From positions 1 to 64,000 of the IMG/VR virus record IMGVR_UViG_3300009506_000004: 64,000 bases of DNA; one strand, given 5' to 3'. The DNA is from a virus. The translations under genes were made by a program, and so were the position numbers. Below are positions 3,817 through 38,438 of this stretch, piece by piece. The notes beneath the pieces were generated by a model. It searched no databases. It had not been told where the DNA came from and was given only the letters and a program-made list of their open reading frames with translations. The stretch's first letter is position 1. Every line of letters begins with the position of its first letter.

Positions 3817-4611
3817 CTAATCAATACAAACATCATTCCTTGAAATTGGGACATAATCCTTATTATTGGCTGACTTTGCAAAATAATCGATAAGACTGGA
3901 CGATGGCTGATTTGTTGCTTTGATCAATATAACCCGTTCACCTTCAGCAAGTCGTAATTCTGTTCCTATTAGGTGGATCGGATTAACCATCACACCAGTC
4001 AATTTATCATCAGATTCTTTACATTCCTCACAAATGGCTTCGGCAAGCTTTTCTTTCATAGTATCGGCAGAGACTACCATATCCCACCGACCACCGGGAA
4101 GGTCAGAAAGCGTAATTGTAGGATACTCGCTTTTTTCATTAAAGTACCCTACGTGTTCTTGTCGCTCGGTTTCTGGATTGTAGCGAGTGATCGAATGTAT
4201 GCAGAATTCCTCGCTTAGCTCGTCTAGAATCCCTTCTAGTGTGCCATCGTACCATGCCTCCTTGAGAATATCATGATCCCTGATCCCTACTTGTGTCTCA
4301 ATTTCGTCTACTTCACACCCCCACAAACAACACCCGTCGCCTGAATATTCGCAGTATTCGTTCCAACTATGAATAGGCTCACAATCGATAGAACTAACCG
4401 CTATACGCGATGCTATCCGTTTAGTCAAGGTTATCCCTAGACGTCCACACGTATCGGGGTGGTGCTGCCATAGCCATGTTTCCACTTGTGGTGTATGGTG
4501 GCCAATTTCATCAACGCAATGGAGGTATCCTGCCCCATAGTCATCGTGTGCACTGTAGTCTGTTGACCCCTCTAGTATGTCAGTTAACAGATCCCTGATT
4601 TCGTCTATCAT
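3817..4611 (-). CDS. Acidic phage hypothetical protein
   Basis: Long ORF; likely start MIDEIR after a GGGGAG RBS. Confidence 0.6.
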   Translation of the reverse strand: MIDEIRDLLTDILEGSTDYSAHDDYGAGYLHCVDEIGHHTPQVETWLWQHHPDTCGRLGITLTKRIASRIAVSSIDCEPIHSWNEYCEYSGDGCCLWGCEVDEIETQVGIRDHDILKEAWYDGTLEGILDELSEEFCIHSITRYNPETERQEHVGYFNEKSEYPTITLSDLPGGRWDMVVSADTMKEKLAEAICEECKESDDKLTGVMVNPIHLIGTELRLAEGERVILIKATNQPSSSLIDYFAKSANNKDYVPISRNDVCID

Positions 4612-4849
4612 ATTATCTCCCCATTTGGCATAACTTGAGTTTTTGCTTTTGACGGTACAGAGGGATCTATGCTGAGTAGCACATACGACCATTCTGTCTG
4701 TTTATTCCAGTTACAGATCGCGTTAATGCCATGATCCCTACTAACAAACTGCTTAGAATGCGTGCCGTTTTCTATCCACACATAGGAACCCTCAACAGTA
4801 TCTCGAAACATGCGTGTGTAGGTTATTTTGACCATTAGTCACTCCTCAA

Positions 4850-31938: not shown

Positions 31939-32065
31939 GATAGGCATTGGGACTCGAACCCAAACTACTGCTTCAGAATAGCGATAACGATCAAACCAGT
32001 CGGCTCATTAGAACAAGTTATTGGAGACCGATTTTTAAGTGTGCTACCATTACACCATACCTATC
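31939..32065 (-). ncRNA. tRNA-bodied, circularly permuted Y RNA-like RNA 2
   Basis: GATAGGTA/TGCCTATC acceptor, GTGT-AATGGTA-GCAC D arm, TTGGG-TTCGAGT-CCCAA T arm; insert CGGTCTCCAATAACTTGTTC-TAAT-GAGCCGACTGGTTTGATCGTTATC. Confidence 0.8.
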
Positions 32066-32796
32066 GTTTATTCTTTCATTAACCCACAACAGCGATCCTT
32101 TTCTTTTAATTCATTATAACAAATATGGCAATGCGTTTGTGGTTCTTTATTTAATTCACAAACAAATTCAACTTTATTTGAATTACCAACTTTTCCAGGA
32201 ATATTTCCCCAACCCCTCAAATATATCGTGCCATCTTTATTAACAACTAATTGAACAGTCCTACCATCATCTAATTCAATTTCAATTACAGCTGAATGTG
32301 GATCATTAACTTCAATAAATTTTGGCTGTCCCATAACATATGTTCTAGCTATCATTTGTTCCCTTTGTAAAATAATCATTTACAAGATTAACACAAGCTA
32401 ACAACGATAAACATAAAATTGGCAAGATTATTATTGGAAGTAAAATTAATCCCATAAAAGGGTCACCCCATAATCCCTTTATTGAATCATAATAATCTTG
32501 TTTCCAAGCCCCCTCCGACACATCATCATCATCATCATCATTCCCGCCGCCATCGTCTATTGTCGGAGGGGGCTTAGCCTTCAACCGAAACGCAGATCTC
32601 CATTCAGCATCCAATTCATTTTCATCAACTGTTTTAAACTTCTTAAGTTGTTCAACAGAATAAATTGTTTCATTTACACTATTAGGATTTATTCCTTCAA
32701 GACAAATATAAACTACACCCTTAAAACCTTTTGGGCTTCTTTTAGTTTGAAGAATTAGTTTATTATTGTCTCTGAAAATCATTTGCTTATATCTAT

Positions 32797-32824
32797 ATTA
32801 TACTACTTATTCTCTTGTTGTCAA
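32797..32824 (-). promoter_or_regulatory. Consensus sigma70 promoter upstream of the Y RNA/SPFH/Ro60 cluster
   Basis: TTGACA-16-TATAAT. Confidence 0.75.
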
Positions 32825-33581
32825 ATTATTTTTTGTTCCAAGCACAGCATATTTGAATAAAAATAACAATTAAAATTAATACAATAGATATAATCCAATA
32901 ATCTAATGTTTCATTGCCAATGAAACCACGTTGGAATTCTGACCACCACACTATTGTCTCTCACTAAGACGCTGACCTATAACTTGTCTACCTAGAAACA
33001 TAAGATTAAATTTACTACCACAAGCATCACATCTAACATTAATTGAACAACCCCCTTCAGGTCCAGTTAGTAAATACCCTATTTTACAATCTGGGCAATC
33101 AGGTTTCTTACTTTCAATAGCAGTAAGTATATATTCAGCTTCTTCTTCTGTAATACATTCATTAATTTCACATGACTGTTTCATACAAAATCCCCTAAAT
33201 TATTATTCATCAGAAACATATTCATCCCAGACTTCCAATACTTTCGCAAGAATACATTTTACATTATTTTCTTCTTCATGAGAACAACATTTATCTGACA
33301 TAACAGTACAAAAGGCATCAATAATCGATTCACGTAATTCAGTAATTATATCATTTTTTTTCATTGTTTCAAGTTTGTACACATTTATCATGTAAAATCC
33401 CCTATGGTGGTTACATCTTTGATATCGAACATTTTGGCTGGTTTAAATGATCTGAATCCATCCTCAGTCCTACAAAGGAGGTTACTACCTTGCCCACCTA
33501 ATACCAAAGCAAGTCTTTCCTTATCGTGGTATGTAAATGTCCACCAAGGACATCTAGGGGCTTGAACAAATTCACAACTAA

Positions 33582-38289: not shown

Positions 38290-38365
38290 TTGGCATGAGT
38301 GGACTTGAACCACTGAAACCTCCTGTTTATAAGACAGGCGCTCTGACCAACTGAGCTACATGCCA
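38290..38365 (-). tRNA. tRNA-Ile(UAU)
   Basis: TGGCATG/CATGCCA acceptor; CCTGT-CTTATAA-ACAGG anticodon arm. Confidence 0.9.
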
Positions 38366-38366
38366 G

Positions 38367-38438
38367 TGAGACCGGCGAGATTTGAACTCGCAATCTTTTG
38401 ATTAAAAGTCAAATGCATTACCATTTTGCTACGATCTC
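38367..38438 (-). tRNA. tRNA-Lys(UUU)
   Basis: GAGATCG/CGGTCTC acceptor; TTTGA-CTTTTAA-TCAAA anticodon arm. Confidence 0.92.

Follow-up and report, generated by a model that had tools for sequence, protein, structure and literature searches.

Y RNAs are thought to tether the Ro60 protein to other factors. The viral locus considered here raises the question of what is encoded by a 127-nt element in which the acceptor stem, D arm and T arm of a tRNA enclose, in place of the anticodon arm, a hairpin resembling a Ro60-binding helix with its two strands in reversed order. The element lies in IMGVR_UViG_3300009506_000004, a complete virus record of 129,439 bp with direct terminal repeats, the first 64 kb of which form the window, that is, the whole stretch of DNA under analysis. 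A second element of the same kind lies in the window, and the two are referred to below as chimera 1 and chimera 2, the latter being the 127-nt element itself. The reading favoured here, to which a probability of roughly 0.8 is given, is that chimera 2 is the gene for a Ro60-associated Y RNA of the YrlA kind that is laid out in the ordinary order of a tRNA gene, with an open 8-bp acceptor stem, a D/T elbow, and a capped Ro hairpin replacing the anticodon arm.

The Ro60 locus and the anatomy of chimera 2

The genes around chimera 2 are all on the minus strand (Table 1). Read in that direction, a promoter (32824-32797) is followed by two small ORFs, chimera 2 and five plain Y RNA units, and then by an 82-aa ORF, a 380-aa ORF, chimera 1 (30114-29985), the Ro60 gene, and a terminator-like hairpin, with the Ro60 gene on the same strand as chimera 2 and 2.1 kb downstream of it. 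An earlier note on this DNA had placed a promoter at 32797-32824, and a perfect 12/12 match to the sigma-70 consensus is indeed found there. The stop codon of the ORF at 32068-32379 lies 2 nt upstream of chimera 2, and the end of chimera 2 (31939) is separated from the helix of the first plain Y unit (31935/31934) by 3-4 nt, in agreement with the 3 nt reported previously. The five plain units (31547-31934) follow one another in tandem, about 14-19 nt apart, without a tRNA-like element in between; their Rfam matches are weak and all below the gathering threshold, reaching 28.1, 26.3, and 24.9 bits for the nematode sbRNA family (RF01656) and 19.5 bits for Y_RNA. Among the ORFs between the promoter and Ro60 none was named by Pfam, and PHROGs named only the 380-aa ORF among the neighbouring ORFs, as 'lipoprotein'. 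A blastn search of 31500-32120 against annotated phages gave no match. Just downstream of the terminator-like site, two products are encoded at 26495-28062 (minus strand), a sugar transferase of bacterial type (Pfam Bac_transf, 2.7e-60) and a protein whose matches to Wzz/GNVR chain-length determinants are weak and below cut-off.

Table 1. Features of the Ro60 locus and of chimera 2, in positions of the window.
Feature	Position	Strand	Score or remark
Intrinsic-terminator-like hairpin, 13 pairs and T run, 3' of the Ro60 gene	28017-28045	-	Consensus match alone
Ro60 (Rsr) gene, 521 aa	28237-29802	-	Pfam vWA_Ro60 3.3e-57, TROVE 1.1e-45
Chimera 1, sister of chimera 2	29985-30114	-	R1 81.6 bits; read by Rfam as a tRNA (51.1 bits, 61-nt insert)
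Five plain Y RNA units	31934-31858, 31843-31782, 31763-31697, 31682-31627, 31607-31547	-	Read from the sequence
Chimera 2, 127-nt Y RNA in tRNA order	31939-32065	-	R1 79.9 bits, E 8.6e-19 (64 kb), model positions 1-129
Acceptor 5' strand; G32065 is an extra first base, 32064-32058 the usual seven	32058-32065	-	Pairs with 31946-31939
D arm, 4-bp stem and 7-nt loop with GG; position 15 is A	32041-32055	-	Stem 32055-32052 with 32044-32041
A-rich single-stranded linker, D arm to Ro hairpin	32031-32040	-	Like linkers in class members and, by eye, in canonical YrlA-like viral loci
Ro60-binding hairpin (predicted), reversed strand order	31988-32030	-	Lower helix covaries
TTATC of GTTATC, at the junction	31983-31987	-	Invariant in alignment A2, though demanded by the search pattern
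Short V hairpin and variable region	31964-31982	-	Exact pairing in chimera 2 ambiguous
T arm, 5-bp stem and TTCGAGT loop	31947-31963	-	Stem 31963-31959 with 31951-31947
Acceptor 3' strand; last base C31939 pairs with G32065	31939-31946	-	Covariation, 8th-pair count, anatomy
Sigma-70-type promoter consensus, 12/12, with two small ORFs and the RNA array downstream	32797-32824	-	Consensus match alone

Every structural feature claimed for the element, namely a tRNA body, a D arm, a T arm, and a permuted Ro module replacing the anticodon arm, is present on the minus strand. The acceptor stem consists of a 7-bp part (32064-32058 with 31946-31940) and an eighth pair, G32065:C31939; all eight pairs are standard in the alignment to the covariance model R1 (described below), and all eight covary among 22 members of the class. 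In the Ro hairpin, the upper stem pairs 32030-32026 with 31992-31988 and 32024-32022 with 31998-31996, in a register that is ambiguous and to which the minimum free energy (MFE) fold prefers another. The lower helix pairs 32014-32011 with 32006-32003 around a TAAT cap (32010-32007), with C32002 bulged and the GA at 32001-32000. The reversal is seen in the order of its strands, in that the 3'-type strand (32016-32011) comes first, followed by the cap and then by the 5'-type strand with the bulged C (32006-32000). The conserved GTTATC motif occupies 31988-31983, and the Levitt pair is A15:U48, with U48 at 31964. Chimera 2 has its TAAT cap instead of a GNRA loop and encodes no CCA, and it has no U immediately before the first base of the stem (G32065), whereas many relatives do. 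Chimera 1 has a G:C Levitt pair and retains an anticodon-type stem of 5 bp, with the entire Ro hairpin inside it. The same subtype occurs in loci L012, L054, and L093 (7912-8042), where GGGA/CGGA is conserved just before the 3' strand of the anticodon-type stem.

Standard tRNA and Y RNA searches pass over the element. ARAGORN called four tRNAs in the window, none of them at 31939-32065, and the Rfam tRNA model (RF00005) gave no match there at its gathering threshold or at E up to 10; of the cloverleaf features of that model, the acceptor, D, and T arms are present in chimera 2 and the anticodon arm of 5 bp and 7 nt is absent. Neither RF00019 nor RF01656 matches at 31939-32065, where the Ro helix is capped by a loop and not made by the RNA ends. 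An unconstrained MFE fold of chimera 2 recovers the acceptor, the D stem, the capped hairpin, and the T stem, with a single-sequence stability that is equalled or exceeded in 28 of 200 shuffles (z -1.10).

Recurrence and covariation in viruses and bacteria

Relatives were sought with a pattern in which the Ro 5' strand (CCGA), GTTATC, and the T arm GGTTCGANTCC were all demanded, and which therefore yields a biased set. At least 119 stretches of the viral collection and at least 120 stretches of bacterial contigs, sampled at one genome per species, contained this pattern. The viral matches listed proved, by eye and by script, to be a mixture of the canonical YrlA order (T, closed acceptor hairpin, D) and the order seen in the window. 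A first rule-based sorting into 9 tRNA-order, 23 canonical, and 112 unclassified stretches was too strict and was replaced. R1 is a covariance model with 23 pairs that was built from 20 aligned viral sequences, none of them from the window, and its seed admitted sequences with 6 or more of the 7 acceptor pairs formed.

When R1 was applied to the window, both chimeras were matched over their full length and the four ordinary tRNAs scored 34 bits or less; R1 detected no further copy in the 129-kb genome, where the next best match scored 43.6 bits. The earlier note had judged the arrangement to be more than chance, which is borne out by the full-length match of chimera 2 (79.9 bits) to a model derived from sequences outside the window. 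Its argument had been that two unrelated tRNA scaffolds carry one and the same graft, and this premise has to be given up, since both chimeras belong to a single YrlA-homologous family and score 81.6 and 79.9 bits on one model.

The search of related phages that had been proposed shows that the same architecture recurs in viruses: at 68 bits or more, R1 recovers 37 copies, comprising 34 distinct sequences, in 23 viral loci among the matches listed (119 loci). These copies are often in tandem, with spacers of 5-8 nt among the matches listed, where there are also five other viral chimeras in which a Y RNA helix starts 4-5 nt after the end of the chimera. A Ro60 homologue was found within the fetched locus in 10 of the 23 viral loci listed, many of these loci being cut at one end. 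R1 was also applied to four of 361 cultured Ro60-encoding phages (Cashline, GMA2, StarPlatinum, and BONAISHI) and gave nothing above 48.6 bits in them, the best match being that in Gordonia phage Cashline, at a canonical-order junction with an unpaired acceptor. The closest viral relative as judged by Ro60 (locus L002, 49% identity) has, upstream of its Ro60 gene, two tRNA-like elements along with plain Y RNAs, and gives no R1 match at E up to 1e-4 and no Rfam tRNA match at E up to 1. Its tRNA-like elements (4340-4430 and 4768-4840, plus strand) lie amid the plain Y RNAs, and one of the two has a 7-nt loop with a Ro-strand-like GATCGA.

In bacteria, the same threshold of 68 bits yields 68 copies in 38 loci among the matches listed, of which 21 are cyanobacterial, 6 are from Myxococcota or 'Deltaproteobacteria', 5 from Gemmatimonadota, 4 from Armatimonadota, 1 from Chloroflexota, and 1 from Deinococcus lacus. 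Carriers of the class that can be cultured probably include Nostoc carneum NIES-2107, Scytonema hofmanni UTEX 2349, and Nostoc sp. FACHB-280, all three being among the matches. The class is linked to Ro60, a homologue of which is present in the same locus (8 kb or less) in 35 of the 38 bacterial loci listed, often at a distance of 60-900 nt. In locus L133 (7148-7652, minus strand) and other Nostocales loci, a conserved CAT precedes the units of the array and ACCAA follows them; the Nostocales unit adjoining rsr has CTTTCATT in place of ACCAA and lies 61-65 nt from the gene. A third layout is seen in a Leptolyngbyaceae genome (locus L126, 4275-4399 and 3999-4122, minus strand; R1 about 60 bits). 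There the lower Ro helix is loop-capped and the upper stem forms a separate downstream hairpin, so that the Y module is joined at its internal loop to the tRNA body; this layout alternates with the ordinary tRNA-order form.

The proposed structure is supported by covariation. In an alignment of 22 members that was made with MAFFT from sequence only and fitted to no structure, 96.2% of cells pair, compared with 70.9% in shuffles, and the covariation score is 0.764, compared with 0.237 in shuffles, none of 500 of which reaches 0.764; when the partners are slid against each other, pairing falls to 36-47%. Applied to the 22 members, RNAalifold arrives at an acceptor of 8 bp, a D stem, a Ro helix with its cap, and a T stem, amounting to 21 pairs of which 18 show compensatory changes. 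In the 90 bacterial matches, none of which came from the seed, 98.0% of cells pair and 0/500 shuffles are as high, in an alignment that was fitted to the model, as were alignments A4-A6 generally. The pairing of seven of the acceptor pairs is partly built in because the seed demanded at least 6 of these 7; choice of the seed placed no demand on the eighth pair, the Levitt pair, or the caps. The Levitt pair (15:48), which lies outside the model, reads G:C or A:U in 30 of the 32 viral and window members and in 60 of the 63 from bacteria. Of 95 members, 84 have after the D arm a stretch complementary to the 5 nt that precede TTATC, compared with 55.8 +/- 3.6 when the partners are shuffled. A GNRA tetraloop closes the Ro helix in 16 of 36 members, at once in 8 and beyond 1-2 more pairs in the other 8, and a UUCG-like loop does so in one; such stable GNRA caps argue that the Ro hairpin is meant to stay closed.

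On this comparative sequence evidence, 31939-32065 is a genuine and conserved gene for an RNA. The lack of an Rfam tRNA or ARAGORN call and the non-significant fold z-score would fit a tRNA gene in decay that carries an insert by chance, or a functionless pseudo-tRNA, but such a reading is scarcely credible for an element that scores 79.9 bits on a model from unrelated viruses, in which every helix has compensatory changes and the Levitt pair covaries, and whose class is linked to Ro60 in nearly all of the bacterial loci listed (35/38).

The V hairpins of the relatives have a stem of 2-4 bp and a 7-nt loop that resembles an anticodon loop, and may be vestigial anticodon arms. Their loop often reads C-T-N-N-N-A-A, with a middle triplet that is not conserved. 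These anticodon-like loops, together with the 5-bp anticodon-type stem that is kept in chimera 1 and the reading of that element by Rfam as a tRNA with a 61-nt insert, could suggest that the chimeras are true tRNAs from which an intron-like insert is removed to give a decoding tRNA. This is even harder to sustain than a decayed tRNA: chimera 2 has no anticodon stem, the 'anticodons' of the V loops are not conserved, the supposed insert bears a conserved, predicted protein-binding helix, an 8-bp acceptor is atypical of decoding tRNAs, and we know of no bacterial splicing route for such inserts.

Relationship to YrlA and other Y RNAs

The canonical order of YrlA has been described by Chen et al. 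(2014; PMC4201824), and its structure by Wang et al. (2018; bioRxiv 10.1101/312249). Chimera 2 shares with YrlA (RF02553) a Ro60-binding helix, here predicted to bind, with a conserved 5' strand, a bulged C, and the GA. YrlA and the class have in common a D arm, a T arm, a V hairpin, and the Levitt pair, which is kept in 90 of 95 class members, and both are encoded beside a Ro60 gene and are found also in phages. The two differ in the order of their parts, since YrlA ends in the Ro helix and runs from the T arm through a closed acceptor to the D arm, whereas chimera 2 runs from the acceptor 5' strand through the D arm, the capped Ro hairpin, and the T arm to the acceptor 3' strand. The tRNA-order element, as far as can be read from sequence, is homologous to YrlA but is its circular permutation, the homology being indicated by the D/T core, the A-rich linker, GUUAUC, and the V hairpin, all of which are common to the canonical-order copies in the same collection.

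Chimera 2 is not filed here as a member of YrlA, because its predicted layout lacks Ro-helix ends and a closed acceptor, which define the family as described, and because RF02553 does not match it. With RF02553 (gathering threshold 69 bits), neither chimera was matched at E up to 10, in the whole genome or in 29000-33500. The only notable match of the model was at 38340-38393 (minus strand; 24.9 bits), at a tRNA-Lys/tRNA-Ile junction where the T arm of one gene is followed by the D arm of the next. Tandem tRNA junctions mimic YrlA and are a type of false positive of which Chen et al. (2014; PMC4201824) warn. It might accordingly be asked whether chimera 2 is itself a canonical YrlA that has been misread, with the T arm taken from one unit and the D arm from the next; the junction at 38340-38393 and the 48.6 bits that R1 gives at the canonical-order junction of Cashline both illustrate how such confusion could arise. 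This is nevertheless the least probable of the alternatives, since what lies upstream of chimera 2 is neither a Ro 5' strand nor a T arm but a protein-coding ORF with its stop 2 nt away, the T arm of chimera 2 has no D arm after it, and both acceptor strands lie inside the unit. Moreover, the units of one array differ in their acceptor sequences and the differences are compensated inside each unit, which rules out a canonical YrlA reading that spans two units.

Other known RNAs approach the class in single respects. The tRNA-like Ro60-bound RNA of 2014 (PMC4201824) has, like the class, an open, CCA-bearing acceptor stem, but it becomes two pieces with a 7-bp stem and an open Ro helix, whereas chimera 2 would remain in a single piece, its stem having 8 bp and its Ro helix being closed. 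In the authors' model of Yrn1 from Deinococcus radiodurans (PMC4201824), a D-like arm, a stem-loop at the position of the anticodon, and a T arm are arranged as here, but the Ro helix is formed by the RNA ends and replaces the acceptor stem, whereas that of chimera 2 replaces the anticodon arm. Among phages, the Ro60 gene of Thermus phage phiLo has Y RNA genes just upstream, as here, although its Yrl1 and Yrl2 are of a plain stem-bulge-stem form, and in vitro phiLo Ro60 binds host PNPase as well as two plain Y-like RNAs (PMC12135203). The Ro60-like gp130 of Bas63 counters the ppl defence, and its authors guess that some of the annotated tRNA genes beside gp130 are Y RNAs (PMC11482910). The available text of the phiLo (PMC12135203) and Bas63 (PMC11482910) papers describes no tRNA-order Y RNA, and full-text searches of the literature found no description of such an RNA. 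The supplementary tables in which Chen et al. (2014) list cyanobacterial YrlAs with 'longer acceptor stems' might hold tRNA-order copies that stand in tandem and were read in the other register. The tRNA-order form is apparently an undescribed variant of known bacterial Y RNAs that is widespread in phages and bacteria, and it may be part of the reason why few YrlAs have been found in cyanobacteria and delta-proteobacteria. In locus L012 (1023-1282, plus strand), two chimeras are adjacent, and 6 bp can also form between the 3' acceptor strand of the first and the 5' acceptor strand of its neighbour; the stretch can be read in both the tRNA order and the YrlA order and may represent an intermediate in the origin of YrlA from tandem units.

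The open acceptor end and a proposed mode of working

The 8-bp acceptor helix that had been drawn in the earlier note is upheld by the presence of G32065:C31939 and by the retention of the eighth pair in 28 of 34 in-register viral and window members, as G:C in 17, U:A in 8, C:G in 2, and A:U in 1. The next two positions outward are paired in 10/34 and 15/34, about the level of chance. The eighth pair is formed in 81 of 90 bacterial members (G:C in 54/90). In ordinary tRNAs from the same viral loci, for which 526 of 933 ARAGORN tRNAs were usable in register, the equivalent position is paired in 228/443 and is G:C in only 8/443, six of these being tRNA-His. A CCA is encoded at the 3' end of 37 of 97 relatives, compared with a chance rate of about 3%; it follows the eighth pair directly in 8 of 34 viral members, and among the best 63 bacterial matches it does so in 9 and follows after one extra base in 20 (29 combined). 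The kept eighth pair and the CCA encoded in relatives together indicate that members of the class most likely have a free, tRNA-like CCA end.

Acceptor stems of 8 bp are found in bacterial tRNA-His (G-1:C73) and in tRNA-Sec, which share with the class an extra first acceptor pair, a G:C in chimera 2. A likeness to tRNA-His had been raised for this reason, and as regards the G:C eighth pair it stands; it fails in the bacterial matches in which an extra base precedes the CCA (20/63, compared with a direct CCA in 9/63). Many Nostocales copies have N-CCA, implying an 8-bp stem plus a discriminator base, so that the comparison is only partly apt. The class also differs from both tRNAs in being without an anticodon and in having U:A or C:G at the eighth pair in some members.

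The probable free end also bears on whether the permutation is carried into the RNA. If the transcript were cut in the cap loop and its acceptor ends were joined, an ordinary YrlA would result and the element would be permuted at the DNA level only, the opposite of what is seen with the permuted tRNA genes of certain algae. The element is indeed an exact circular permutation of YrlA, which itself has no free CCA end and has been described as a circularly permuted tRNA, and processing of this kind, in the opposite direction, has been discussed for YrlA (Wang et al., 2018; 10.1101/312249). Such maturation is very unlikely, even if it is the strongest of the rival explanations. The caps are often GNRA tetraloops, which make a stable closed hairpin, a 3' CCA is encoded in 37/97 relatives, the acceptor stops sharply at 8 bp, and no member of the RtcB-type ligase family was found in the phage genome.

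The following mode of working is proposed for chimera 2. It would be co-transcribed from the promoter at 32824-32797 with the five plain Y RNAs, chimera 1, and the phage Ro60 gene. Host RNase P would cut 5' of G32065, and a host activity acting on tRNA 3' ends would cut after C31939, the same cut freeing the 5' end of the first plain Y RNA; the one observation that points to a release of downstream Y units by tRNA-end processing is the start of a Y helix 4-5 nt after chimeras elsewhere. The CCA would be added by a host enzyme, and no member of the CCA-adding enzyme family was found in the phage genome. In the mature RNA, the cap loop of the Ro helix would sit where normal Y RNAs have their ends. 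Phage Ro60 would bind the capped helix, the elbow and the free acceptor end would engage a host factor that recognizes tRNAs, and the RNA would thereby tether Ro60 to that factor.

A more far-reaching and rather doubtful extension is that tRNA-order Y RNAs with a genuine free CCA on an 8-bp stem take part in an acceptor-end biochemistry that goes beyond canonical YrlA. Members with G-1:C73-CCA might be charged by histidyl-tRNA synthetase, or the class might serve as acceptor-end decoys or sensors, guiding Ro60 (and an exonuclease, by analogy) to tRNA-end enzymes. Under the same extension, the tRNA-order form might also be the unpermuted ancestor that gave rise to YrlA when the register of tandem arrays shifted, which would explain the small number of YrlAs in cyanobacteria and delta-proteobacteria.

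The field has yet to establish what binds the tRNA-like portion of bacterial Y RNAs, and a widespread form with an open 8-bp acceptor and an often encoded CCA opens RNase P cleavage, CCA addition, charging, and the binding of tRNA-end enzymes to test. Recognition of the tRNA-order class would recover Y RNAs that are missed by current models or annotated as odd tRNAs, and it bears on the origin of YrlA from tRNA genes. For the biology of phages, the locus presents a Ro60 operon with tRNA-like elements that may serve as punctuation in a transcript carrying several RNAs.
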